Part shown: in pieces, positions 1 to 62,240 of the stretch | How positions within the stretch are numbered: position 1 is the stretch's first letter | How the letters are laid out: each line of letters opens with the position of its first letter | IMG/VR virus record: IMGVR_UViG_3300010413_000002 | Span: 1 to 64,000 of that record | DNA: 64,000 nucleotides | Reading direction: 5' to 3' (one strand) | Source: a virus | Taxonomy: Duplodnaviria > Heunggongvirae > Uroviricota > Caudoviricetes | The notes under the pieces: generated by a model | The model's database searches: none | What the model saw: the letters and a program-made list of their open reading frames with translations, nothing else | Told to the model about the DNA's origin: nothing | Translations under genes and position numbers: made by a program

Positions 1-473
1 GGAGCATGATGTGTAATAACAACACATCTTTTATGTTTGTATTTATCTAATTGCCATTGTAGATTTTTTTTAGACATCAGATGTTGAATATAAGTATCTT
101 CTGCTTTAAGAATTTTTTCTTTACATTGAATGTAGCTATAGTCATTCATATATCTTTCAGCTATAACTTTATTTTCTTCTATATCTTTATTACCATATTT
201 GAAATCTGTCCAAAGTGTTGTTGCAAAGAAAACGTATCGTTCATATTCTTTAATATAAACATATCCGTCTTTCTTAAATTTATTATTTCCATAATAATAA
301 TGATTTCCAGTACATCCAAAATATTTTGAATTACCTTTAATCTCATCAAGATACCTTTGTCCCATATCTCCACAATATAAAGTTAAATCAGCCTCTTTTG
401 GCGTTTCTTTTAATGGCGAATATGTACATTGTTTAAATTCACTATGAACGTCGCTTATTACATGTAATTTCAT
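1..473 (-). CDS. Calcineurin-like metallophosphoesterase. Partial: start codon at 473, open frame runs off the window start.
   Basis: Hand translation of the minus strand from the ATG at 473 gives MKLHVISDVHSEF...LYCGDMG...GNHYYYG...ITHHAP with no stop through position 1. The DxH, GDxxD and GNH(E/D) phosphoesterase motifs are present. It is absent from the ORF track because no stop lies in the window. It overlaps the stop of 442-1221 by about 30 nt. Confidence 0.6.
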   Translation of the reverse strand, partial: MKLHVISDVHSEFKQCTYSPLKETPKEADLTLYCGDMGQRYLDEIKGNSKYFGCTGNHYYYGNNKFKKDGYVYIKEYERYVFFATTLWTDFKYGNKDIEENKVIAERYMNDYSYIQCKEKILKAEDTYIQHLMSKKNLQWQLDKYKHKRCVVITHHA

Positions 474-1221
474 AATTCCTCTTTTTATATTGAATATGTT
501 CTTTAAGAATTTTTTGCCAACGTTTTGGTTTTTTTCCTAATTCCCATCTTGGATCTAAAACTAAATCATCATATAAATCTAATATTTCTTTTTTAACTTC
601 TTTGATAGCTTCATTTTCATCTTTATCCCAACAAACTATACCTAATTCTTTTAAGGAAACACTGCATTCTTTACCATTAGAATTTAATTCTATCGTTACA
701 ACAAAAGGTTTTTTTAAAATATAATTTTCTTCATCTAATGAAGATATTTTTCTAAAAATTTTTATACATCCATTGTTCATTATTAAAAATTTAAAACTTG
801 AAAATTCTTTTTCTTTATTTCTTTTTTTAAAAACATATCTATTTTTTTTATGATTGAATTCGTCTATTTTCCATTTGTTTGCATCAATTTCAAAACTTTC
901 TATATAGTAATTAGGTAAAATAATTTTTTTTACTTCTTCGTCTTTTAATTTATTTTCTTTTTTAGGTTCTTTTAAAAATTCTTTTATTGAGACCTCTCTA
1001 CAAATTACTGGACAATCATCGAAAATTCCGAAAAATGGCATTGCCCAATGTTGACATATATATGTAAATCCATATTTTAATCTATCGTAATTAAAGAGTA
1101 TATCATGAGGATAAAAACCTAATCTTTTAAATTTATTTTTTATTTTATTGAATTTTCTTTTACTGATATTTTTTGGTAATTTAATATATTTACATCTAAA
1201 ATCCTTTTTTGTTAATATCAT
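442..1221 (-). CDS. Hypothetical protein; member 1 of a three-member paralog family (N-terminus MI-TKKDF).
   Basis: 259-aa ORF. Its ATG overlaps the Rnl2 stop (ATGA overlap at 1218-1221). It shares an N-terminal ~80-aa domain with 26748-27218 and 31212-31799 (MIxxTKKDF..., LPKN-S-K-FNKIKNKF, (V/I)S(I/V)(K/E)(E/D)FL). Confidence 0.6.
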   Translation of the reverse strand: MILTKKDFRCKYIKLPKNISKRKFNKIKNKFKRLGFYPHDILFNYDRLKYGFTYICQHWAMPFFGIFDDCPVICREVSIKEFLKEPKKENKLKDEEVKKIILPNYYIESFEIDANKWKIDEFNHKKNRYVFKKRNKEKEFSSFKFLIMNNGCIKIFRKISSLDEENYILKKPFVVTIELNSNGKECSVSLKELGIVCWDKDENEAIKEVKKEILDLYDDLVLDPRWELGKKPKRWQKILKEHIQYKKRNYEITCNKRRS

Positions 1222-2198
1222 TCTCTTTCCTTAAATGTATCAAAGAACAAATCTTTTATAAGTTCTACTGATTTTTTGTTAATAATTTTTGTAATTCTGC
1301 TTTTCTCTTCGTTGCTTACTGATTTTATATCTATTTTATCATCTTTTGCATCATTTAGCAAGTCTTTTACAAACCTTCCTAAGAATATGCCGAAGTCTTT
1401 TTTGGTATATTGTTCTTTAGAAAATACAGCATCAAACCTGTTTTCGGTAATATAGCTTGATAAATTAGATATTAGTTCATTAGCTTCTTGGCTTAATTCT
1501 TTAAGTTTAATTTTAATTTTTTTGCCTTTTTCTGAAAACTTTTTATTTTTATTTTTGATTATTACTCTGCTTCCACCATTAGTAGTATAGTCCCCTTCAA
1601 AAGGTTTGATAACTGTTCCTTCACAAGTATTATTCTCAACAATTGGCAATCCATTCAATAAAGGAATCATACTATCAAAATCATTTGGATACTCCAAAAC
1701 TTCCTCTAAAGTTCCTATTTTTAAAGGTTCTAAGTAAGGAATTTTAAATTCTTTGAAGATTTCAATTGCTTCTTTATAAGCTATAAATTTATCATCTATT
1801 TTTAAATCAAAAAATACAACGTTTATATATTTGCTATATTGTATTCCTTTTTGGACTCTTAATTCTAAAGTCTCATTATTCCAAAGACCTCCGTATATTT
1901 CTCCATATATTATGATTGGTTTTTTGTATTTTTCATATATTTGTTTTATGTTGTCTTCGTATTTAGGAAGAACATTATGAGAATTATAAAAACTTCCTCG
2001 TATAAAAGAGGAACGGTTTCCATAATCAAAACCTTCTTCATCATAATAAAGCAAGATGTTAGCTCCGTGTACTTTTTCAGTGGCACACCACTTTTCTTCT
2101 TTTGGAACTAAATATTCAGCTTGGCATAATAAACTCTTGTTAGATATTTGTTTTATACTTGAATATTCTTTAAATTTTTCTTTTTTCATTTTTTCCAA
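1218..2198 (-). CDS. ATP-dependent RNA ligase, T4 Rnl2 family.
   Basis: Motif I KVHGAN (ATEKVHGANILLYY), motif IV EGTVIKP, motif V RVIIKNKNKKFSEKGK and N-terminal KEYSS all match T4 Rnl2 (EKIHGTN, EGYVLKP, RVAIKCKNSKFSEKKK). Confidence 0.85.
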   Translation of the reverse strand: MEKMKKEKFKEYSSIKQISNKSLLCQAEYLVPKEEKWCATEKVHGANILLYYDEEGFDYGNRSSFIRGSFYNSHNVLPKYEDNIKQIYEKYKKPIIIYGEIYGGLWNNETLELRVQKGIQYSKYINVVFFDLKIDDKFIAYKEAIEIFKEFKIPYLEPLKIGTLEEVLEYPNDFDSMIPLLNGLPIVENNTCEGTVIKPFEGDYTTNGGSRVIIKNKNKKFSEKGKKIKIKLKELSQEANELISNLSSYITENRFDAVFSKEQYTKKDFGIFLGRFVKDLLNDAKDDKIDIKSVSNEEKSRITKIINKKSVELIKDLFFDTFKERE

Positions 2199-6667: not shown

Positions 6668-7990
6668 TTAAATTAGATTTTTTCTTATAAAACTTAATAA
6701 ATCTTCTTTGTTGTTTTCAACTTTATCATCAAGAACTGCATTAAATAATTCTTGTAGAATAAATCCTATAATTTTATGTCCTTTTTTTAATCCAATAAGT
6801 TTCATTATATCGTTTCCATTAATATTTAAATCTTTTACAGAAAATGCTGGAATATAGTTTTTTACTTCATTTATTCTTTTTAAAATTGTTTTCCAGTAGC
6901 TTAATTTCTTTAACCTTTTCTTTCTGTTTGCTTTTCTATCAGCTATTTTTAATCTAAGAATATCCTTATAATTAACATTGTCATTTTCTAATGCTACTAA
7001 CCATCTTCTTATAGCTTTGTCTTTACTTGTTGGCATTATGTGCCACATATGAAGCTTTATAATATTGCATACTTTGTCTATAAATTCATTACTGAATTTT
7101 AAATTTAATAAAGTTTGTTTTGCATAACTACAACTATATTTTTCGTGATTATGAAATATTAATTTATCGTTTTTTATTTGAAACTTACTTTTGCCTACAT
7201 CGTGTAGCAATCCCGCCATTTTTACTATAGGATATTTACTAGAAATATAAGAACAAGTATCTAAACAATGTTCATAAACTGTTTCATTATGATGTTCTCC
7301 GCCATCTAAATACTTAATCTTTTTTAAACAAGGAAAAACAGTTCCAAGAATTCCTGTTTTATCTAAATAAATACAAAATTGCTTTAAGTTCTTGATGGAT
7401 TTTATTATTTCTTTATTTATTCTTTCTTTAGGAATCGACTTTATTCTTTTTTTAGAACCGCTTTTTTTCAAAAGTTCTTTTAAACTAGAGTCTTCTATTT
7501 CAAAATTTAGAATTGAAGCAAATCTAAAAGCTCTTAATATTCTTACTGGATCTTCTTTTATTCTTTCAGAAGGTTTTCCTACAAATTTGATTAGTTTATG
7601 CTGTATATGACTTTGTCCTCCAAAATAATCAAAATATTCATCCTTGAAAGGATCATAAGCTATTGCATTTATTGTAAAATCTCTTCGACTACAATCTTCT
7701 TTTAGTGTTTCAACGTAATTACAAACTGGTTTTCCTATAATATCGTATCTTTCTCCTCGAAAAGTTGCGACTTCAATTCCATCTACGAGCATCACTTTAA
7801 ATTGTTCTCCTACGTGAGAAAGTTTTCTATCTTTGAATATTTGTTTTATTTTGTTTGGTTTTGCGTTTGTAACAATATCATAATCTTTTGGTTCTAAACC
7901 AAGAAGTTTGTCTCTGGTGCAACCGCCTATGAAAAAAGCTTGATAACCTTTGTTTTGAAGTATTTTTATGATTTCAAGTTCTTTTTTCAT
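6668..7990 (-). CDS. cca: CCA-adding enzyme (tRNA nucleotidyltransferase) with C-terminal HD domain.
   Basis: FFIGGCTRDKLLGLEPKDYDIVT (pol-beta nucleotidyltransferase head, GGxxRDxLLGxxxxDxDxxT) and LLHDVGK (HD motif). Confidence 0.8.
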   Translation of the reverse strand: MKKELEIIKILQNKGYQAFFIGGCTRDKLLGLEPKDYDIVTNAKPNKIKQIFKDRKLSHVGEQFKVMLVDGIEVATFRGERYDIIGKPVCNYVETLKEDCSRRDFTINAIAYDPFKDEYFDYFGGQSHIQHKLIKFVGKPSERIKEDPVRILRAFRFASILNFEIEDSSLKELLKKSGSKKRIKSIPKERINKEIIKSIKNLKQFCIYLDKTGILGTVFPCLKKIKYLDGGEHHNETVYEHCLDTCSYISSKYPIVKMAGLLHDVGKSKFQIKNDKLIFHNHEKYSCSYAKQTLLNLKFSNEFIDKVCNIIKLHMWHIMPTSKDKAIRRWLVALENDNVNYKDILRLKIADRKANRKKRLKKLSYWKTILKRINEVKNYIPAFSVKDLNINGNDIMKLIGLKKGHKIIGFILQELFNAVLDDKVENNKEDLLSFIRKNLI

Positions 7991-11180: not shown

Positions 11181-11693
11181 TTAATCTATTTTATTTTCTA
11201 ATGGTGGAAGTTTAGCTCCGTTTGAAATTTCTATTTCTTTCATTTTATCATAATCTTCTTGAGATATTTCTTCATAAGAAACGCTTGCTAACTTTTTAGA
11301 AAGCTCCCCAGATATTAAAGCCTCTACTTTTTTTAAGTTAAGTTTTTTCTTTGAAAGTTCTTCTTCTTTTTCTTTAATTTCATTAGAAAGTTTTTGAACA
11401 AGATTTCCAAAATAATTTTCAAGCTCTTGAATTGATGAAGGAAATAATTTTAAATCATTAGTACCACTATAAATTTTGTTTTCTATGTCAATTACATTAG
11501 ACCAAGAATTACGTTTATATTGCAAAAATTCTATATAAGTTGAACTTCCTTCGTTTAATAAATCTATGACAATACAATATGTCATTTTAATATTATTATC
11601 GTCTTCTTCTACCATCTTAACTACATCACCTTTTTTCAAAGATGTTATTTTTAAAATTTTAGCTTCAGATTGTATTAAAGTTTTAGTCTTCAT
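11181..11693 (-). CDS. Hypothetical protein.
   Basis: 170-aa ORF. Confidence 0.5.
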   Translation of the reverse strand: MKTKTLIQSEAKILKITSLKKGDVVKMVEEDDNNIKMTYCIVIDLLNEGSSTYIEFLQYKRNSWSNVIDIENKIYSGTNDLKLFPSSIQELENYFGNLVQKLSNEIKEKEEELSKKKLNLKKVEALISGELSKKLASVSYEEISQEDYDKMKEIEISNGAKLPPLENKID

Positions 11694-13065: not shown

Positions 13066-13623
13066 TTATAATTTTAATGTGTGGTTTTTAAAATTTATCA
13101 AAGCATTTAAATCTTTTTCTTTAAAAGTTATTAATTTATCAACCAATCCTTTTTTACATTTTTTTATAAAAGTAGATAGCTTTTCTTTTCCATCCATTAT
13201 AAAATTGTATTCATTATTGCATAAAATATTTTTATGATTAGATATTCTAACTGCAAAAAATATTTTTCCTTCGCTGTAATATTCGAAATATTTGCTAAAT
13301 TTCTTTGACAATTTCATAGTCTGTTCTATTTCTATTCCTTTTATACTTTTTAATTCATTTATTAAAGCGGTCATCTTTTTTTCAAATCTTTTATGCAAAC
13401 AATAAATAATGCTTAATTGTTTTTCTATAGAAATAAGTGAATATTCACTTTTTTTATTATTCTCTGCTTTTATAAATTTATCTTTTTCTCCAAATTTCTG
13501 TATTATTTTATTAGTAAATTTATCAGAAAAAATATAACCAACATTGTTATTTGAATACAAAGCGTATCTATTAAAGCTATTTTCTATTTCTTTTACAAAT
13601 TCATCATCTCTTAATATAAACAT
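13066..13623 (-). CDS. Hypothetical protein.
   Basis: 185-aa ORF. Confidence 0.5.
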   Translation of the reverse strand: MFILRDDEFVKEIENSFNRYALYSNNNVGYIFSDKFTNKIIQKFGEKDKFIKAENNKKSEYSLISIEKQLSIIYCLHKRFEKKMTALINELKSIKGIEIEQTMKLSKKFSKYFEYYSEGKIFFAVRISNHKNILCNNEYNFIMDGKEKLSTFIKKCKKGLVDKLITFKEKDLNALINFKNHTLKL

Positions 13624-24464: not shown

Positions 24465-24878
24465 ATGTTTAGTTTTAAAAAAAAGGAAGAAATTAAGGAA
24501 AGCAAAGCTGAAGAAGTTAAGCAAGAAGAAATTGCCTTAGATATTAGAGAAGAAATAAAAAAAATTGGAAATAATGTAGATAAGTTTATATTTAAGCGAA
24601 AACTTAATTCTTTTGGTCGTTCAGATTATGAATTTGAATATAAAAATTTATCTATTAGCTATTATCTTGATATTTTGTCAATATCAAAAATTTATTTAAT
24701 TAATAAAAATTGGAAAAAGGAAAAAAAATTATATCTATATCCATTACAGTTATCAAAAAAAGAAGAAGAATTTTTAGATGAGAAATTTTTAGAAAGAGCT
24801 AAACAAGAGAAAAAAAAAGAAGAAACAAGATTATTAGAAGAAGAAACTAAACTATTAAGAAAAGTTAAATTTGATTAA
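24465..24878 (+). CDS. Hypothetical charged coiled-coil protein.
   Basis: RBS AAGGAGAAT before the ATG at 24465. Confidence 0.45.
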   Translation: MFSFKKKEEIKESKAEEVKQEEIALDIREEIKKIGNNVDKFIFKRKLNSFGRSDYEFEYKNLSISYYLDILSISKIYLINKNWKKEKKLYLYPLQLSKKEEEFLDEKFLERAKQEKKKEETRLLEEETKLLRKVKFD

Positions 24879-26758
24879 TGATAATTTTTCGAAAATACCA
24901 ACAAAAATGTATAAATAAAGCAACAAGAGCTTTAATAGAGAGAGGAAATACAATAGGAGTAGCACCCACTGGAGCTGGAAAGACAATAATTATGTCTGGA
25001 ATAGTAAACAATCTCTTGATATTAAAAAAAGTTTCTAAAGTTTTATTTTTATGTCATAGACAAGAAATTAATCAGCAAAATTTTGAAAAGTTTATTAGAG
25101 TAACAGGTGTAACACCAACTCTTTTTATAAGTGCGTTTAAAAGCATCAAAAGAAAGATTGTTTTTGGAATGGTGCAAACGGTTTATAGGTCTTACGATAA
25201 ACTTCCAGCTTTTGATATGATAGTTGTAGACGAAGGACATCATTCTTGTGCAGAAAGTTATGATACAATAATTGAAGACCAAAAAAGAAAAAATCCTAAT
25301 TTAATAGTTCTTTTAATTACTGCAACGCCAAACAGGGGAGATAGACAAGGATTAATAAAGTATGTAGATAATGTTGCATTTCAAGTTTTTATTAAAGATT
25401 TAATAAAACAAGGCTTTTTGGTTAAACCAACGCCAATTTCAATTCCTCTTAATACCTTTGAAAATCGACATCATTTAGCAAAAGAAGAGAATTATGATTT
25501 TGTAAATCGAATTCTTTATAAGAAAATGCAAAAACATGAAGTTTTTAAGAGAAAGACTATAATATTCTGTAGAGATTTTAATCAAGTTGATAGCGTTAAA
25601 GACTATTTAGAAAAGATAGGAATAGAAACCGTTACAATTAGTTCAGAATTAAATGCTTATGATAGAAGCGAAAATCTTAGAAAGTTTGAAGAAAATGAAG
25701 TTGATATTATTTTAAATGTAGATGTATTAACGGAAGGTTATGATTATCCTCCTGCTGATTGTATAATCGTTTTACGAGCTGTAGGAAACAAGTCTTTGTA
25801 TATGCAAATGGTAGGAAGAGGTCTTAGAACTGTAGATCCAATAGAATATCCTAATGTATTTAAAAAAGATTGTCTATTATTAGATTTCGCTAGGAATCTT
25901 GAAGTTTATACTGATTTGGAACAAGAAGTTGATTTAATAGGACTCCAAAAAGAAGGTATGAATATAATGGATATTTTCAATGAGCCTCAAGAAAAAACTG
26001 AAATAACTTTAAAAGAAGTAGAAAAATCAATGCTTTTTAGCGAAGAAAGAAGAAATCTTTTTGAAAAATATAATGTCTTTTGGGAGTTTTTTGATAGTGA
26101 TATGGGATTTGTAAGTGGTTGTTGTGGTTATAAAAGTTCAATTTTTGTTGTAAATAATAATATATTTTACCAAGAAGACAAAAGAGAAAATAGCCGATTT
26201 CTTCTTATAAAAGATACGATTAATCTTGACAAATTAATTAATGATTGTATGATGGGAGAAGAAGAAAACAAAAAAAGAATAAATGAGCCAATAAATAAAG
26301 CTCAAATTAATATTCTTTTTGGAAAGTACAATATTGCAAGTTGCTCTAGCTATAGAGCGTCAGTGATGATAAATTTTGAGTTTAATAAGAAACAATTTGT
26401 TGAATTATTAAAAGGAATACAAATGAAATATAATTGGAGTAAAGAAAAAGCTACAAAATATTTAACTGATAATGAAATAACTTATAATGAATTAAAGAAT
26501 ATTTTAGATTCTGCTGAAGAAATATTTAAAAATTCAGATGAAAAAAGTTTCGTTAATAAAAATGCTCCTATAACATACTCTCTTAATTGTTTTAAAGGTT
26601 GGTTAAAAGAAAAATTAGAAGTTTGTAAGTTTTCTGATAAAATAAAAAAAACAAGTAACAATTATGGTAAAACCATAGCAAGTTCTGATTTTATAGTTTG
26701 TAGAAATATACTTTGGGAATTTGGAAAATTAATAAAAAAGGATAAAAATGATAATTAA
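24878..26758 (+). CDS. Superfamily-2 DExH-box helicase.
   Basis: Motif I VAPTGAGKT, motif II IVVDEGHHS, motif III ITATPNR, motif VI QMVGRGLR. Confidence 0.8.
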   Translation: MIIFRKYQQKCINKATRALIERGNTIGVAPTGAGKTIIMSGIVNNLLILKKVSKVLFLCHRQEINQQNFEKFIRVTGVTPTLFISAFKSIKRKIVFGMVQTVYRSYDKLPAFDMIVVDEGHHSCAESYDTIIEDQKRKNPNLIVLLITATPNRGDRQGLIKYVDNVAFQVFIKDLIKQGFLVKPTPISIPLNTFENRHHLAKEENYDFVNRILYKKMQKHEVFKRKTIIFCRDFNQVDSVKDYLEKIGIETVTISSELNAYDRSENLRKFEENEVDIILNVDVLTEGYDYPPADCIIVLRAVGNKSLYMQMVGRGLRTVDPIEYPNVFKKDCLLLDFARNLEVYTDLEQEVDLIGLQKEGMNIMDIFNEPQEKTEITLKEVEKSMLFSEERRNLFEKYNVFWEFFDSDMGFVSGCCGYKSSIFVVNNNIFYQEDKRENSRFLLIKDTINLDKLINDCMMGEEENKKRINEPINKAQINILFGKYNIASCSSYRASVMINFEFNKKQFVELLKGIQMKYNWSKEKATKYLTDNEITYNELKNILDSAEEIFKNSDEKSFVNKNAPITYSLNCFKGWLKEKLEVCKFSDKIKKTSNNYGKTIASSDFIVCRNILWEFGKLIKKDKNDN

Positions 26759-27218
26759 GACAAAAAAAGATTTTAAAGGAAAATGTATAGAATTACCAAA
26801 AAACTTAAGTGAGAAAATTTTTAATAAAATTAAAAATAAGTTTGATAAGCTTGCTTTACACTTTTCAAGTAATTATATATTTGGAGACCAAGAACACTGT
26901 CCATATATATGCTATTTATATGACGAAGCAAGTAATTATCTTAAAACTGATAATGTTCCTTATGGAGAAGAAATTTCAATAGAAGATTTTTTGAATGAAG
27001 AAGAAAATAGATGTTTGGTTGCTTATTCTTATTCAACTACTAGTATTAGTGGTTTCGGAAATATAGAAATGACACAAAATTCTAACGAACTTTATATAAA
27101 TAAAGAAACTATTGATCAATGGAGAGAAATTATTAAGGAAAAATTAAAAGAAAAGAATTTAGAAGTAGAAAAAGATAATATAATAATAATTAATCGAATG
27201 AAAATGGAAATAATTTGA
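26748..27218 (+). CDS. Hypothetical protein; paralog family member 2.
   Basis: MIIKTKKDFKGKCIELPKNLSEKIFNKIKNKFDKL...EISIEDFLNEEE. Overlaps the helicase stop. Confidence 0.55.
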   Translation: MIIKTKKDFKGKCIELPKNLSEKIFNKIKNKFDKLALHFSSNYIFGDQEHCPYICYLYDEASNYLKTDNVPYGEEISIEDFLNEEENRCLVAYSYSTTSISGFGNIEMTQNSNELYINKETIDQWREIIKEKLKEKNLEVEKDNIIIINRMKMEII

Positions 27219-27277: not shown

Positions 27278-27580
27278 ATGTTTGGCGGAATGACTTGTAG
27301 TGAGCGTTGGCAATTAATGCAATTACAGTTTAAAGTAGGAGCAATGATTGCTCTTCAAGCAAATTTATATGACAAAATTTTGCCAAAAGAAAATCATTCT
27401 AAACTTTTAAAAGAAAGCACAAAAAGAATAGAGAAAATGGTTTTAAAAGAAAGAGAAGATATAAAAAATCTAAAAAAATTAGCAGAAGAAGAAAGAGAAA
27501 GTAATGAGGATTTTTTTAAAGTTTTTGGTTTGGATAAAAATGGAAAAAAGATTAAGAAAAATAAGGAGGAAAATGTTTAA
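27278..27580 (+). CDS. Hypothetical protein.
   Basis: 100-aa ORF with RBS AAGGAG. Confidence 0.45.
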   Translation: MFGGMTCSERWQLMQLQFKVGAMIALQANLYDKILPKENHSKLLKESTKRIEKMVLKEREDIKNLKKLAEEERESNEDFFKVFGLDKNGKKIKKNKEENV

Positions 27581-27974
27581 AATTTTTTTAAGAAAAAAGT
27601 CGCTTTCTTTACCACCTCCGCCATCAATGCCTAAAGCAAAAGAAGAAATAAGGCATGATTGTGAAAAAGATGGGCATTTATATGAAATTCTTGAAAAAGT
27701 TTACTATATTGATGATGCAACTACTGAAGTTCCAAAGCCAACTAGAACAGGACGTTTTTATTTAGAATGCTCTAATTGTAAAAAAAGATTAAAGTTAGAA
27801 GGAACTTGGATTTGTGTAGATTATCTTTGGGAAAACAATATAATAAGTAATGAAAATTGGAGAGAATTAAGAAAAAAAATTAGCGATTATTTAGATGAAA
27901 AATGGAATGATTATAAAAAATCTTTAAAAAAACCTAAAAGAGGTAGACCAAAAAAGAAAAAAGGAGACAAATGA
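27573..27974 (+). CDS. Hypothetical Cys-containing protein with an AT-hook-like basic tail.
   Basis: RBS AAGGAGGAAA then ATG at 27573. C..H / CSNC..C pairs. KRGRPKKKKG tail. Confidence 0.45.
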   Translation: MFKIFLRKKSLSLPPPPSMPKAKEEIRHDCEKDGHLYEILEKVYYIDDATTEVPKPTRTGRFYLECSNCKKRLKLEGTWICVDYLWENNIISNENWRELRKKISDYLDEKWNDYKKSLKKPKRGRPKKKKGDK

Positions 27975-28402
27975 AAGATTTTAAGTTGTGTTATATTGAA
28001 GGAAATTTTGCTTATTTTACTACGCAAGATTTAGATAAGCAAACTGGAGATGATTGGAACGATGCTCCTTATGATCTCAATGCTGGAGAACCATATACTC
28101 CAACTATTTATTATCCCTCTGGAAAAAAAGATCCTAGAGATTGGACAAATGGAAAACCAAATTGGGAAATTAAAAAATTAGTTTGGGAAGGAGATTTTGA
28201 CGAAGCGAAAAATATTTATATGGAAGATATAAATTGTATTTATTGTGTAGATGATATAAATAACAAAAAAGTTCCTTGGTTAGAATATCAAGGATATTCT
28301 AATGAAGATCTTGAGATTAAAATATGGGCAGGATGTTCAATTAAAGAGTTTAAAAAATTAATTAAAAAAGGCGGTGGAAAAATTTATGTGGAGGAAAAAT
28401 GA
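27971..28402 (+). CDS. Hypothetical protein.
   Basis: 143-aa ORF. Confidence 0.45.
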   Translation: MKDFKLCYIEGNFAYFTTQDLDKQTGDDWNDAPYDLNAGEPYTPTIYYPSGKKDPRDWTNGKPNWEIKKLVWEGDFDEAKNIYMEDINCIYCVDDINNKKVPWLEYQGYSNEDLEIKIWAGCSIKEFKKLIKKGGGKIYVEEK

Positions 28403-30966
28403 AAACTAAATTAAATATAGTATATGTCTTAGTAGGACCAACATCTTGTGGAAAAAGTTATTTTTGTAACGAAATGAAACAAAAGCTTACTAAACAAGGA
28501 TTAAGAACCGTTATCTTATCTTCTGATGAAGAAAGAAGAAATACATTTGGCGAAAATCTCCATAAATACAATAAACAAATGCTTCAGTCAAGCGAAAAAG
28601 CATTTAATATCTTATATTATAAATTGGAACAATTAATGAAATATCCTAATAGACCTCATTTTATATTTGTTGATACTACAGGTTTATCAGAAGATTTTAG
28701 AAACGATATTATCAATATAGTAAAAAAGACAAATTATAACCTTGGTCTTATTGTATTTACATATAAAGAAAAGTCTGAATACTATAAACACATCTCAGAA
28801 GAAGACTTAGAAAAAGGTAAACATATTATAGATAGACATATAACAAGATTAAAGAAAGACGTATTTAAAACACTTTCTAAGAAAAAATATAATTTTTGTC
28901 ATAATATAACTGAAAAAGATTTTTCAAATATAAAGTTTGAAATTGAAGATTTAGACTTATATAAATCAACCTTTTTAACAGATAAGGAAAATTATCTTGT
29001 TATAAGCGACATTCATGGACATTTTGATGAATTTAAGAAATTATTAGAATTGAACGAAATCAAAATAGAAAAAGACAGGATAGCTTCCTCCCCCTATAGC
29101 AAAATAATAATAAATGGGGATACAATAGATAAAGGTAAGCAAAGCAAAGAAGTCTTAAAGTTTCTTTTAAACAACAAAGAACATTTTAGGTTTGTCATAG
29201 GAAATCACGAAAATTTTATATATAAGTATCTAAAAGGAGAAATAGATATTAATAAGTTGAATAAGGAAATTTTAAAACAGTTTTCTTCAGCGGAGCAATA
29301 TAAAGACGATAAAGAGTTTTTTTTATTGTTGGAAGAATATATAAATTTATGCGTTCCTTTCTTACAGAACAGTTATTTTATAGTAAATCATGCTCCTTGC
29401 AAAAATAAGTATTTAGGATTGCTAAACTTTAAGTCTTTAAAGAAACAAAGAAACTACTTTATAAACGATAGAGAAAAAGCTTTAGAAGAATTAAGGTTTG
29501 TACAAGAACAAAGTCGAGGTAACTACCCACTTCATATATTCGGGCATATTGCAGTTAAGAAAGTTTCAAAAATAAAGAATGAGATTTTTACAGATACTGG
29601 TGCTGGAAATAATCAAAAATTAACTGCTTTAGAATTATCTTACAAAGAATTTAAGGACTCATATTATACAAAAAACATATCGGTCGATTGCGAAGGAGAA
29701 CCCAAACAAGAAGGTTTAGAAATAGAAAAAAAGAAAGAAGTAGATTTTGACCTATTAGAACCAAAAGAAAGAGGAAGAATTTATTGGGCAATAGATAACA
29801 AAGTTCAATTCATATCAGGTACAATGCCTCCTTCTGCTTCAAGTGATGAATATGGATTAGAAAGTTTAGAAACTGCTATATCCTACTTCGAAAGTAAAGA
29901 CTACAAATTAGAAGATTTAGTATTCCAACCAAAGTATATGGGATCAAGATGTACGCTTTATCTAAATAGAGACATTGAAAAGTGTATGATGACTTCAAGA
30001 AAGGGCTATAGGATTAGGCGTTTATATGATAAAAACGGAGAAGAGATTACTGATTTTGTTGAAATATATAACAAATTTTTAGCAAAACCAAAACTAAAGA
30101 AACTATTAGAAGACGAAACAATAGAAACTATTGTTTTAGATGGCGAACTAATGCCTTGGTATGCTCTAGGAAGAAATCTAATAGAAAACACCTATGAAAA
30201 AGTTGCTGATTGCATAGAAAATGAACTAGAACTTTTAAAGGAAACTAATTTTGAAGAAGCTTTAAGTAAAGTTGATAAAGCATACAAAGATTTTAATTTT
30301 GAAGAACGACATAAAAACGAAAAAGCTAAAGATTTAGAAGCTGAAATAGGATACACTATCTATAAAACTTTTTTAAATTATAAGAATAGCAATTTTGCTC
30401 CTTTAAAAGATGTTGAAAGTAATTTAAAAGAATTTAAAAATCAAATAAGCCTATATGGCTCTAAAGAGGAAATAGATTATAAACCTTTTGATATGCTTAA
30501 AATTATTTACAAAGACGGAACTGAAAAAGTTAAAAATCCAAAAAAGGATAGTTCGCATGATGTTTTTTGGAAAGTAAATAGTAATGGATGCCAAAAATTC
30601 TCCAAAATAGAAGAATTAAAAGAATGGTATGAAATTATAACTAAAGATTTAAAATTAGAGGGCTGTGTGATTAAACCAGAGTTCTTAAAAGATGATTGTA
30701 TACCTTATATGAAAGTTCGTAATCCTAGGTACTTAAAATTAATCTACGGATATGATTATGATGATAAGGATAACTTAGAATATCTAATTAGAAACAAAAG
30801 AACAAAAAAGAAATGTCAAGTTGCAATAGAACAATTTAAATTGGGGCTAAAGTTGTTAAATTTCAAGGTAGACGAAATTACTAAAGAAAACGAGGACTAT
30901 AAACAAACTGTTGCCAAAATAATCTTTGAGGAAAAGAAAGAGACTGAAATTGACCCAAGATTGTAA
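28399..30966 (+). CDS. Trifunctional Pnkp-like RNA-repair enzyme: 5'-OH polynucleotide kinase, metallophosphoesterase (2',3'-phosphatase) and C-terminal ligase-like domain.
   Basis: P-loop VYVLVGPTSCGKSYF at the N-terminus. Central calcineurin-type motifs ISDIHGH, INGDTIDKG, IGNHE. C-terminal region with KYMGSR (candidate KxxG adenylyltransferase motif I). 855 aa, the same domain order and size as bacterial Pnkp. Confidence 0.7.
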   Translation: MKTKLNIVYVLVGPTSCGKSYFCNEMKQKLTKQGLRTVILSSDEERRNTFGENLHKYNKQMLQSSEKAFNILYYKLEQLMKYPNRPHFIFVDTTGLSEDFRNDIINIVKKTNYNLGLIVFTYKEKSEYYKHISEEDLEKGKHIIDRHITRLKKDVFKTLSKKKYNFCHNITEKDFSNIKFEIEDLDLYKSTFLTDKENYLVISDIHGHFDEFKKLLELNEIKIEKDRIASSPYSKIIINGDTIDKGKQSKEVLKFLLNNKEHFRFVIGNHENFIYKYLKGEIDINKLNKEILKQFSSAEQYKDDKEFFLLLEEYINLCVPFLQNSYFIVNHAPCKNKYLGLLNFKSLKKQRNYFINDREKALEELRFVQEQSRGNYPLHIFGHIAVKKVSKIKNEIFTDTGAGNNQKLTALELSYKEFKDSYYTKNISVDCEGEPKQEGLEIEKKKEVDFDLLEPKERGRIYWAIDNKVQFISGTMPPSASSDEYGLESLETAISYFESKDYKLEDLVFQPKYMGSRCTLYLNRDIEKCMMTSRKGYRIRRLYDKNGEEITDFVEIYNKFLAKPKLKKLLEDETIETIVLDGELMPWYALGRNLIENTYEKVADCIENELELLKETNFEEALSKVDKAYKDFNFEERHKNEKAKDLEAEIGYTIYKTFLNYKNSNFAPLKDVESNLKEFKNQISLYGSKEEIDYKPFDMLKIIYKDGTEKVKNPKKDSSHDVFWKVNSNGCQKFSKIEELKEWYEIITKDLKLEGCVIKPEFLKDDCIPYMKVRNPRYLKLIYGYDYDDKDNLEYLIRNKRTKKKCQVAIEQFKLGLKLLNFKVDEITKENEDYKQTVAKIIFEEKKETEIDPRL

Positions 30967-30981
30967 AAAACGAGAAGAAAA

Positions 30982-31194
30982 ATGACAAAAAATTTAAAAT
31001 CAGAGACAATACAAGTGAACAATAATATTTATATAAATGGAGAACTGATAAAATTGCCTAAAAAGATAAAAAGGAATAGTCAGACTATTATAAACGAAAA
31101 TGGTAGAATTTATATTAATGGCTATAAATATTGCCCTATAAAAAAAGAGTTTAAATTTTCTGTAATAGGATTTATAAAAACAATATTATTTTAA
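30982..31194 (+). CDS. Hypothetical small protein.
   Basis: 70-aa ORF. Confidence 0.4.
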   Translation: MTKNLKSETIQVNNNIYINGELIKLPKKIKRNSQTIINENGRIYINGYKYCPIKKEFKFSVIGFIKTILF

Positions 31195-31211: not shown

Positions 31212-31799
31212 ATGATAATTAAAACAAAAAAGGATTTTGATCCGTTTTTTTTAGAAATAACTCCAAAATTAACTGCAAAAAAATACGTAGAAGTTTGTAA
31301 TAAATTTAAAGCAATGGACTTTTGGTATGAACCAAGAAATGGTTTAAAAGAATTAGAAGGAAAAATAGGTCAATGTTATTTATATATAAACGCTACTGGA
31401 CATATATTTTCTGATTATAAATTAGATAAGGAAGGATTAAAACCATTAGAAATAATTTCAGTTGAAGACTTTTTAAGAGAGGAAGATTATCCTACAATTA
31501 TTCCTTCTGAAGAAAAATATGGAGGGATTTTCTATAAGGACAAAAGATATGATGAAACACCAAAAGGCATACAGCAACTAGTAGATGATTTTTCTAAAAA
31601 TAATCAAGGTGTTGTATTTCCAAAAGAAGATGAAAGGACATATGGTACAAAAAATAAAAAAAGTTTATTGCCAAATCCAAAAAATATAGAAGAAGAAGTA
31701 TACGGTACTCCAAGGTATAATGATGTTCTTATTGAAGAAAATAGAGTTTTAATTAAACAAATATGCGAATATTTAAGAGAAAAGGAGAATGATGATTAG
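31212..31799 (+). CDS. Hypothetical protein; paralog family member 3.
   Basis: MIIKTKKDFDPFF...CNKFKA...IISVEDFLREED. Confidence 0.55.
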   Translation: MIIKTKKDFDPFFLEITPKLTAKKYVEVCNKFKAMDFWYEPRNGLKELEGKIGQCYLYINATGHIFSDYKLDKEGLKPLEIISVEDFLREEDYPTIIPSEEKYGGIFYKDKRYDETPKGIQQLVDDFSKNNQGVVFPKEDERTYGTKNKKSLLPNPKNIEEEVYGTPRYNDVLIEENRVLIKQICEYLREKENDD

Positions 31800-37092: not shown

Positions 37093-37355
37093 ATTTCTAA
37101 AAAACTTCCCTTTTAAATTTTAATATATATAATATATCTTATGGCAATTTAAACGTTGTATATAATAGATGATATGGACACGGGAGCATTACCCGTCTCT
37201 TCCACCAATTGATTATAAGGGGGAGAAATAGATTTGACATACATTCAAAGATACAATCTTTGCTCAGAGTGATTTCTGTGAAAGTCAAAAAAATAACTGG
37301 AGAAGAAATTCTTTTAGCCGCCTAAAAATTCAAAATTTTAAGACGGAACGGTTTG

Positions 37356-37388
37356 GGAGAGCCGTTTTACCAAACTCTCCTTTGTTTT
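37356..37388. terminator. Bidirectional rho-independent terminator between convergent blocks.
   Basis: GGAGAG-ccgttttaccaaa-CTCTCC stem-loop followed by TTTGTTTT. It sits at the stop of the minus-strand tdk and downstream of the plus block. Confidence 0.5.
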
Positions 37389-56557: not shown

Positions 56558-57377
56558 AATTTCCCTTTATTATTGTATTAATTATAATATAAACCATAAG
56601 AATTAATTGTCAAGAAAAATCGTACAAGGGGGGGTCTTTTTTAAAAAATAAAGTTGGGAAATTTTGAGCCGTACCCAACCCCCCATTCTATTCCCACAAT
56701 TTTTTTGCTTGAAAAATAAAACTTATACGTTAAGCTTTGAAAGAAAATCTTGTGATAAACAAGAATGCGTATACTTAACTTAAATATTATAATTTTAATA
56801 AATTCTTAAAAGAAAAAATTAAAACAGAAAACATTAATTGATAATATTTATAATAAATTTCATTTGTTTATTAACAATACAAAAGAGCCAGTTATTTCAA
56901 ATAGTGATATAATGGAGATTTATAAAGTAATTAAACAAATAGATGATTGTAATGAATTACTTGCTTATTAAGAGAGAAAAAATATGAGTATAACTAGTTT
57001 TTTAATTTTTTCAAGTTTTATATTTTTGTTAGATCCAGTATCAATTATTATACTAATACCTTTATATTTTTGTTTATTTTAATAATGGAAAAGTTTTATA
57101 TATTTCAGTTATATTTTTTAAAACAAAAACACCCCAACAAAGACCTTTGCCCTATTCAACAATAAATAAAGCTTCTTTTTGTCTATTGCTTTTTCCGCCA
57201 AGTGAGCAAGTATTACTAAAGCCTTTTAATATATCGCCTTCAAAGATTAAATTTCCTTACTTATATCTTTCGAGAAATCTGTCTCCTCCGTACTCGTACT
57301 CAATAATTTCATTGGATTTTCAATGCACCAAGACAAGGCATCAAATGAATTTTTAAATGTTTTTGTCATTTTTTATT

Positions 57378-57896
57378 TTATTTATTAAAATTTTTATCTT
57401 CAAAAAGAAACCAATGTCCTTTATCTTTGGCTATGTCCCAATTGCATTCTTCTCCTTCTTCTGTTTCCCTATCTGTACTCCAGATATCGCAAACACTTGT
57501 CCAATTAAAACAAACTCCAATATAATCTTTATAGTCTAATTGTTTTAAGTCTTCTTTTATTGCAAGAAAATGAAAACGTTCTTTTTCTATTGGATACTTA
57601 TTTATCCAATCATCTATTGCTTTGCAGAGTTTATTAAAGTTTTCTTTTTTTATGATTGTGTAATCAAAAGTGCAAGCTAGTAAAATTTTCTCAAAGCTTT
57701 TTAATCTTTTATCATCTACTAATTTCCAAAGAGGTTGATAGTTTTCTAAGCGTAAATCAAACCAACTTTCTACATTGAAATATTCTTTGACTAAAGCGTT
57801 CCAAATTACTGGAGCTGAGAAATGAGAGTTTTGATACTCTTTTATTTCTTCAATTTCTCCCTTTTTCGGAACTCCGTACATTGTAGTCCAACTCAT
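57378..57896 (-). CDS. Hypothetical protein.
   Basis: 172 aa. Leftward promoter at about 57925-57960. Confidence 0.5.
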   Translation of the reverse strand: MSWTTMYGVPKKGEIEEIKEYQNSHFSAPVIWNALVKEYFNVESWFDLRLENYQPLWKLVDDKRLKSFEKILLACTFDYTIIKKENFNKLCKAIDDWINKYPIEKERFHFLAIKEDLKQLDYKDYIGVCFNWTSVCDIWSTDRETEEGEECNWDIAKDKGHWFLFEDKNFNK

Positions 57897-58074
57897 GAAC
57901 TTTTTTTAATTATTAATCTAATTATAGTATAAACCATTAAAGAATTTTTGTCAAATAAAATTTGAAAAATAATGTTTTTATTTGTTGATTATTTCAGTCT
58001 TTATAGAAGCTTAAAATATTATAGAAAATATTGTTTTTTCTTGAAAAATAAAAATCTAAAGTTATAATAACTTT

Positions 58075-62005: not shown

Positions 62006-62107
62006 ACAGGGGTACGATGGTTCAAATCCATCCGCTATCTTAAGATGGCGTGGCAGAGTGGTTATGCACCTGTGTGTATTACTTTTCGTCTATTAAAAAA
62101 ACACAGG
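62006..62107 (+). tRNA. tRNA-like element alpha with apparent permuted order. The 3' half (anticodon-stem 3' strand, variable loop, T-arm, acceptor 3' strand) lies upstream of its matching 5' half (acceptor 5' strand, D-arm, anticodon-stem 5' strand).
   Basis: 3' half 62006-62040: ACAGG-GGTAC-GATGG-TTCAAAT-CCATC-CGCTATC-T. TAA linker. 5' half 62044-62073: GATGGCG-TG-GCAG-AGTGGTT-ATGC-A-CCTGT. The acceptor strands GATGGCG and CGCTATC pair 7/7 (one G-U). CCTGT pairs with ACAGG. The extended stem 62069-62075 with 62101-62107 encloses a 25-nt loop. Confidence 0.4.
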
Positions 62108-62132
62108 AAGTTCCTATTTTAATGCTCGATAA

Positions 62133-62240
62133 GCAGGAGGTCGTAGGTTCGAGTCCTACCTTCCGCATTTGCGGTTGTAGCTCAGTTGGTAGAGCGCCTT
62201 TATGTACTTCCCGTTTTTATTAATGATAAAGGCAGTTCCT
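62133..62240 (+). tRNA. tRNA-like element beta. A canonical tRNA 3' half (62133-62167) is followed by a canonical 5' half (62171-62201), but the halves do not pair well with each other. Possibly a degenerate, split or trans-paired tRNA.
   Basis: 3' half GCAGG-AGGTC-GTAGG-TTCGAGT-CCTAC-CTTCCGC-A. 5' half GCGGTTG-TA-GCTC-AGTTGGTA-GAGC-G-CCTTT. Acceptor complementarity is only 5/7. An 8-bp stem GCCTTTAT / ATAAAGGC encloses a 22-nt loop. Confidence 0.3.

Follow-up and report, generated by a model that had tools for sequence, protein, structure and literature searches.

What does a protein domain do that occurs three times in one phage genome, each time close to an enzyme of nucleic-acid metabolism? 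The question is raised by positions 1 to 64,000 of IMG/VR record IMGVR_UViG_3300010413_000002, a virus of the class Caudoviricetes; we refer to this whole stretch of 64,000 nucleotides (nt) as the window. An initial annotation pointed to three open reading frames (ORFs) in it that share an N-terminal domain, here called domain A, and proposed repeated recruitment beside RNA and DNA enzymes as an accessory, specificity or targeting module. Our sequence comparisons lead us to conclude that the three copies are true paralogs and that domain A belongs to a rare and modular phage family. The enzyme association is not conserved among relatives, and we tentatively favor a reading in which domain A is a common docking or recognition module joined to diverse tails.

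The shared domain and its copies in the window

The three ORFs encode proteins of 259 amino acids (aa) (copy 1, 442–1221, minus strand), 156 aa (copy 2, 26748–27218, plus strand) and 195 aa (copy 3, 31212–31799, plus strand). Domain A occupies approximately residues 1–92 of copy 1 (946–1221), 1–89 of copy 2 (26748–27014), where only a short tail follows, and 1–96 of copy 3 (31212–31499). In pairwise BLASTP with composition adjustment, copies 2 and 3 match at E = 4e-10 (31/98 identical), copies 2 and 1 at E = 6e-6, and copies 1 and 3, the weakest pair, at E = 2e-4. Because the window is only 24.5% guanine plus cytosine (GC) and the proteins contain ~14% lysine, we added a comparison of Smith-Waterman scores with those of 2000 composition-preserving shuffles of one partner. 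The resulting z was 12.8 for copies 2 and 3, 15.6 for copies 2 and 1, and 4.1 for copies 1 and 3, with 0, 0 and 7 of the 2000 shuffles, respectively, reaching the observed score. A profile hidden Markov model (HMM) of the three copies, and later one of 16 sequences, recovered exactly these three loci from the six-frame translation of the window. The similarity spans residues 1 to ~90; both ends are strongly conserved, the middle varies, and domain A of copy 3 has diverged furthest. The shared domain claimed by the initial annotation is thus borne out, and the motifs quoted for it are present with two corrections: copy 3 lacks LPKN-S-K-FNKIKNKF, reading ITPKLTAKKYVEVCNKF at this place, and copy 1 ends in FLKEP, not in EE.

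Could this resemblance merely reflect a K/I/N-rich composition, or could the ORFs not be genes at all? A genome of 24.5% GC, lysine-rich proteins and an E-value of only 2e-4 for copies 1 and 3 would be in keeping with such an artefact. However, the shuffle z reaches 15.6, relatives drawn independently from 1.84 billion proteins show the same conserved end motifs, ORFs of 156–259 aa with ribosome-binding sites stand in a stop-rich AT genome, and the fold predicted by AlphaFold2 is confident. On this evidence we regard a compositional artefact as excluded; the chance that the ORFs or their likeness are spurious is vanishingly small.

The copies do not appear to be recent duplicates. More than one copy of domain A occurs on three independent contigs (three copies in the window, two on NODE_161 and two on L012), and the co-resident domains in the window share 35% (copies 1 and 2), 32% (copies 2 and 3) and 20% (copies 1 and 3) identity. 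A tree of the domains does not group the window copies together. Copy 1 is nearest to relative P0005 (49%) and copy 2 to P0008 (47%), each beyond either co-resident copy, and copy 3 is tied at 32% between P0016 and copy 2. Because copies 1 and 2 lie nearer to domains of other phages and the co-resident identities are so low, we conclude from these comparisons that the window copies are old, separately maintained lineages. At the DNA level, similarity between the copies starts at the ribosome-binding site, which is of AAGGA type in all three cases, and is over within the first 40–107 coding nt; no flanking repeats were found around the copies. Recent duplication of a DNA cassette is ruled out by these two observations.

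Distribution, architecture and predicted fold of the family

When 1.84 billion cluster representatives were searched exhaustively with a profile, no more than 16 proteins reached E <= 1e-3; besides the three window copies, these were one fragment and 12 relatives (E = 4e-10 to 2.5e-4). All relatives keep the signature IKTK(E/K)DFxGKYIxLPxNxSxKKFxKIKxKFxRLGF ... EISI(K/E)DFLxEE. Their contigs, at 24–31% GC in every one fetched, are phage-like and carry genes for YopX, Rnl2, MazG, ERF, tail tape measure protein and TnpB. Among the genes that the window phage shares with these contigs are those encoding Rnl2 (53% identity) and a 185-aa protein (84% identity).

The latter lies at 13066–13623 on the minus strand of the window and at 11322–11888 of L004, and the 35-kb phage that carries relative P0008 is otherwise dissimilar to the window phage. 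An identical copy 1 was found in sequencing run SRR14699974, which also contains the P0008 phage. Since a protein with 84% identity is shared by otherwise dissimilar phages from the same run, its gene seems to have been exchanged horizontally and recently, which suggests a common host or environment.

No described family accounts for domain A. Scans of Pfam-A, PHROGs v4, NCBIfam and PADLOC, run with single sequences and with lax E-values for each member, gave no consistent match: the best matches were scattered, confined to single members, at E >= 0.002 and below curated cut-offs (Pfam, NCBIfam), and no library family was matched by more than 3 of 15 members. A sequence-profile search of the PDB with domain A, tblastn of the domain against 50,697 INPHARED phage genomes and megablast of the region all returned no match. 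Pattern scans of viral contig collections found only L009, which is the same phage as P0008, and those of genome and metagenome collections yielded no relative among the matches listed (600 candidates). The suspicion voiced in the initial annotation, that no known domain is present and that the family may be new, fits the searched libraries and structure sets as well as the count of 16 proteins among 1.84 billion representatives. We conclude from these searches that this is a rare, lineage-restricted and previously undescribed modular family in a pool of uncultured, very AT-rich phages.

Its modularity is evident from the position of domain A, which stands at the N-terminus of 13 proteins but inside three others (P0006, P0008 and P0016), and from its partners. 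When domain A was masked in the relatives and partner modules were sought, a second module (module B; …F…EAxxWxxxNPMKEIEY…R(Y/F)N) emerged. Of the 12 relatives outside the window, 7 have it joined to domain A, and P0007 contains it twice. In other places module B is a gene of its own or has different partners, namely at 6686–7105 of L002, at 14022–14519 of L011 and at 57247–57369 on the minus strand of the window. The order of modules varies as well: P0008 reads B-A-Zn, and P0016 reads X-A-B, compared with X-B in a free-standing 236-aa gene (L002 11295–12005). Residues 1–104 and 216–301 of P0016 (L011 10001–10999) match this gene, with domain A, residues 109–211, lying between the two matched parts, so that P0016 looks like a case in which domain A was inserted or swapped into another protein. 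The tail of P0011 is 53% identical to a separate, free-standing 170-aa gene, and CxxC…CxxC zinc-ribbon-like stretches can be seen in the sequences of P0007, P0008 and P0010. Taken at the sequence level, domain A is a portable module with mosaic architectures.

The window occurrence of module B is a 40-aa ORF with the first half of the module (…FKNSFDALSWCIENPMK…; E = 7.6e-11 to the module B HMM), a free-standing and probably truncated stub. Weak matches of the three-copy HMM had made the overlapping region 57250–57905 on the minus strand a candidate for a degenerate fourth copy; the 172-aa ORF there is unrelated, and the 40-aa ORF holds module B, not domain A. Module B itself had no match in Pfam or in a PDB profile search, and a likeness to DUF2829/Tad2, noted by eye, found no support in either. 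Homolog searches with the C-terminal regions of copies 1, 2 and 3 matched nothing, the 167-aa region of copy 1 retrieving itself as its sole match. This region had seemed HicB-like by eye, but it has no Pfam or PDB match and its AlphaFold2 model is of low confidence. The related 39-kb phage contig also carries two TnpB genes (IS605 OrfB/Cas12f-like; L002 12187–13374 and 19139–20266), which sit a few genes downstream of P0007.

AlphaFold2, run on copy 2 with a 15-sequence alignment, predicts for domain A a compact alpha/beta fold. Block means of the predicted local distance difference test (pLDDT) over residues 1–80 are 91, 93, 93, 87, 82, 79, 79 and 92, and the modeled topology comprises a short helix, a beta strand, an alpha helix (22–34), the variable region, three beta strands and a short helix; one further confident helix lies in the tail (aa 119–135). 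A separate model of copy 1 has the same topology; its conserved ends are confident, whereas the variable insert and the C-terminal region score low. Foldseek with the copy 2 model found nothing in the PDB at E < 1. In BFVD its best, though marginal, matches were A0A2I7RM49 (267 aa, E = 7e-3, prob 1.00) and A0A2I7RIK1 (301 aa, E = 2e-2, prob 0.99), both uncharacterized viral proteins aligned over 86–106 columns at 16–23% identity. Within these two sets, then, the predicted fold appears to have no characterized relative. Invariant positions in the family are mainly core hydrophobics, together with a few polar residues (T5, K6, D8, K12, S21, K31, S77 and E84).

Genomic setting and possible roles

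The initial identification of the three neighboring enzymes agrees with their Pfam domains. Directly upstream of copy 1, in the same operon, lies the gene of an Rnl2-type RNA ligase (1218–2198, minus strand; PF09414 at 3.6e-17 and PF18043, T4_Rnl2_C, at 1e-10), whose stop overlaps the copy 1 start by 4 nt (ATGA). An SF2 helicase with ResIII and Helicase_C domains (24878–26758, plus strand) is encoded directly upstream of copy 2, and the copy 2 start codon lies 11 nt inside this gene, overlapping its stop. Both overlaps are as first described. Because the starts overlap the upstream stop codons, translational coupling of copies 1 and 2 to the preceding genes is suggested. The bacterial-type Pnkp (28399–30966, plus strand) has P-loop kinase, metallophosphatase and PNKP_ligase (ligase-like adenylyltransferase) domains. 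Copy 3 had been placed about 250 nt downstream of it, and the distance is indeed 246 nt, but the gap is filled by a 70-aa ORF (30982–31194, plus strand; no family match) that ends 17 nt before copy 3. All three copies are placed within operons.

In its gene content the window is a region of phage replication, recombination and nucleotide metabolism, with genes for SSB, YopX, a beta-clamp-like protein, DnaB, a DnaC-like loader, YqaJ, a RecT-like protein, thymidine kinase, a CCA-adding enzyme (6668–7990, minus strand; PolyA_pol head, tRNA_NucTran2_2 and HD domains), a GT4 glycosyltransferase and an SPFH protein. Of the sizeable genes in the region, those for nucleic-acid enzymes are the most numerous class, and they are dense between 16 and 36 kb. 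As operon signals, promoter- and terminator-like sites were uninformative, being no commoner than in shuffled sequence.

Several further features of these genes deserve mention. Residues ~330–626 of the helicase form a C-terminal extension of ~300 aa with no Pfam match, which precedes and overlaps copy 2. The CCA-adding enzyme, Rnl2 and the kinase-phosphatase-ligase Pnkp together give the window phage a full transfer RNA (tRNA) repair toolkit. The two ORFs upstream of Pnkp (27504–27974 and 27971–28402) have no Pfam match, so no recognizable Hen1 stands beside it. At 37102–37383 on the plus strand we found a strong match to a permuted (two-piece) transfer-messenger RNA (tmRNA), at 98.9 bits to RF01849, alpha_tmRNA (gathering 50; E = 8.7e-26, full-length model), and at 101.4 bits to RF04321, tmRNA_permuted. 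Together with the 24.5% GC, an alpha-type tmRNA hints at a low-GC alphaproteobacterial host; the window DnaB is uninformative on the host, as its best matches are ~33% identical and spread across unrelated phages. A borderline Rfam tRNA match (29.5 bits vs gathering 29) at 62044–62167 on the plus strand is unusually long at 124 nt and may be intron-containing or spurious. ARAGORN called nothing at the tmRNA or at the tRNA candidate.

How, then, might domain A function? We lean, tentatively and somewhat short of judging it probable, toward domain A as a common docking or recognition module, by analogy with other shuffled viral modules. A docking function is suggested by the way one conserved module is paired with variable partners and by the pattern of invariant positions. 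In such a scheme domain A would bind one common partner, a protein or nucleic acid of phage or host, and activities or specificities would differ according to what is attached to it, whether a divergent C-terminal region or a fused module (module B, zinc ribbons and unique tails). The window copies would be co-expressed with the replication and RNA-repair operons, with translation of copies 1 and 2 apparently coupled to that of Rnl2 and the SF2 helicase, yet without these copies being dedicated partners of those enzymes. Some points weigh against this reading. Among members, the first 40 residues carry a net charge of anywhere from +1 to +12; the binding partner of domain A is hypothetical; the C-terminal regions in the window are orphans that AlphaFold2 models poorly, and their effector role is our assumption. 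A conserved basic helix 1 had been considered as a sign of nucleic-acid binding and was dropped, as its charge is not conserved. Because the basic character of this helix varies, a simple nucleic-acid-binding reading is weakened, and we make no choice between a nucleic acid and a protein ligand.

The initial proposal corresponds to a different arrangement, in which each copy is an accessory or specificity factor of the adjacent enzyme (copy 1 of Rnl2, copy 2 of the helicase and copy 3 of Pnkp). The stop-codon overlaps of copies 1 and 2, implying co-translation, are in its favor. So is the finding that both members on NODE_161 lie within ~2.5 kb of Rnl2 (L002 4646–5602, 7108–8076 and 10001–11260), and that the 139-aa gene abutting this Rnl2 upstream contains module B (E = 7.5e-9), to which domain A is fused more often than to any other partner; a Pnkp with no recognizable adjacent Hen1 also makes an unconventional partner conceivable. 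However, on the three long related contigs (NODE_161 with its two copies, the 35-kb P0008 phage and the 63-kb L011), the genes directly flanking the members have no Pfam domain of a nucleic-acid enzyme, and the conserved association expected in relatives is absent from every one of them. Copy 3 is parted from Pnkp by the 70-aa ORF, and the three supposed partners come from unrelated enzyme classes, yet the conserved part is a common domain. Because most sizeable operon genes in this stretch of the window are nucleic-acid enzymes, adjacency to one is expected by chance, and the repeated recruitment is not supported in the form proposed at the outset. What is left of the accessory idea, namely the overlaps of copies 1 and 2 and the nearby Rnl2 on NODE_161, lends it weak support, and we consider dedicated partnership unlikely. 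A more elaborate version, in which domain A is a new fold and an adaptor tethering effector tails to Rnl2, the helicase and Pnkp or to a host defense component, strikes us as improbable; were it true, domain A and module B would constitute a new accessory or anti-defense module system specific to an AT-rich phage group, possibly one infecting alphaproteobacteria.

Two further explanations look away from the neighboring enzymes. The family could be an early-expressed one for host takeover or anti-defense, domain A and module B binding or sponging host factors and being shuffled in an arms race. Its small size, fast divergence and mosaic structure would fit, as would the location of relatives in runs of small, unannotated, early-type ORFs (L011 and NODE_161) and the richness of the window phage in functions of counter-defense type (Rnl2, Pnkp and the CCA-adding enzyme, plus the tmRNA). 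This support is, however, purely contextual: members match no anti-defense family in PADLOC or Pfam, and the presumed kinship of module B with DUF2829/Tad2 found no support in Pfam or PDB profile searches. We therefore hold this explanation to be unlikely, albeit with some real chance of being correct. Selfish, mobile and free-standing genes of homing-endonuclease type, inserted where genes meet and with domain A as a DNA-binding or nuclease module, would account for several copies per phage genome, for their position at the 3' ends of conserved enzyme genes and for the heavy shuffling of domains. Presence also differs among related phages, NODE_161 having no family member downstream of its Rnl2, although, with Rnl2 at 53% identity, the two genomes have diverged too far for an empty site to be defined. 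Nevertheless, GIY-YIG/T5orf172, HNH, LAGLIDADG and PD-(D/E)xK domains were undetected in the three window proteins and 10 relatives at lax thresholds (E <= 0.1–1), no conserved catalytic-type motif is evident beyond a few polar residues, flanking repeats and cassette-like DNA identity are lacking, and the co-resident copies are ancient (20–35% identity) and not recently spread. Such an origin seems very unlikely to us.

As it stands, domain A is one among many small orphan domain families of uncultured phages, and a well-delimited candidate for a Pfam or PHROG entry. Should it prove to serve in docking, it would enlarge by one the set of shuffled modules from which phages build their early, regulatory and counter-defense proteins. 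It could also indicate an unrecognized partner of the phage RNA-repair enzymes Rnl2 and Pnkp, whose accessory factors are poorly known.

Comparison with known systems

Small accessory partners of RNA-repair enzymes are exemplified by Archease, which acts with RtcB, and by Hen1, which accompanies bacterial Pnkp. The window family resembles them in that a small gene is transcribed together with an RNA-repair enzyme or ligase, copy 1 being apparently coupled to Rnl2. Unlike them, domain A follows a helicase as well, its adjacency to enzymes is not kept in relatives, and a Pfam scan detects no homology to either protein.

Alike in behavior, by analogy, are the Bro-N/KilA-N-type shuffled modules of DNA viruses and phages, reportedly described by Iyer, Koonin and Aravind in 2002. 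Like these, domain A is a small, often N-terminal module with many fusion partners; a single viral genome has several copies of it, and they lie in early or regulatory regions. It differs in having no match to PF02498, PF04383 or any solved structure and in belonging to a far smaller family of 16 proteins, and DNA binding would be hypothetical in its case. Bro-N and KilA-N domains are also mentioned in the study of ICP1 homing-endonuclease families, which are multi-copy, domain-shuffled and placed at gene boundaries like 'beads on a string' (PMC8263062).

Free-standing homing endonucleases (T5orf172/GIY-YIG and HNH) likewise form multi-copy paralogs with shuffled domains beside conserved enzyme genes, as does the family described here. 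In contrast to them, the domain A family is old and divergent, with neither a detected nuclease domain nor DNA cassette boundaries. Shuffled, multi-copy phage modules are thus a known kind of phenomenon; what appears to be new is the domain A family itself.

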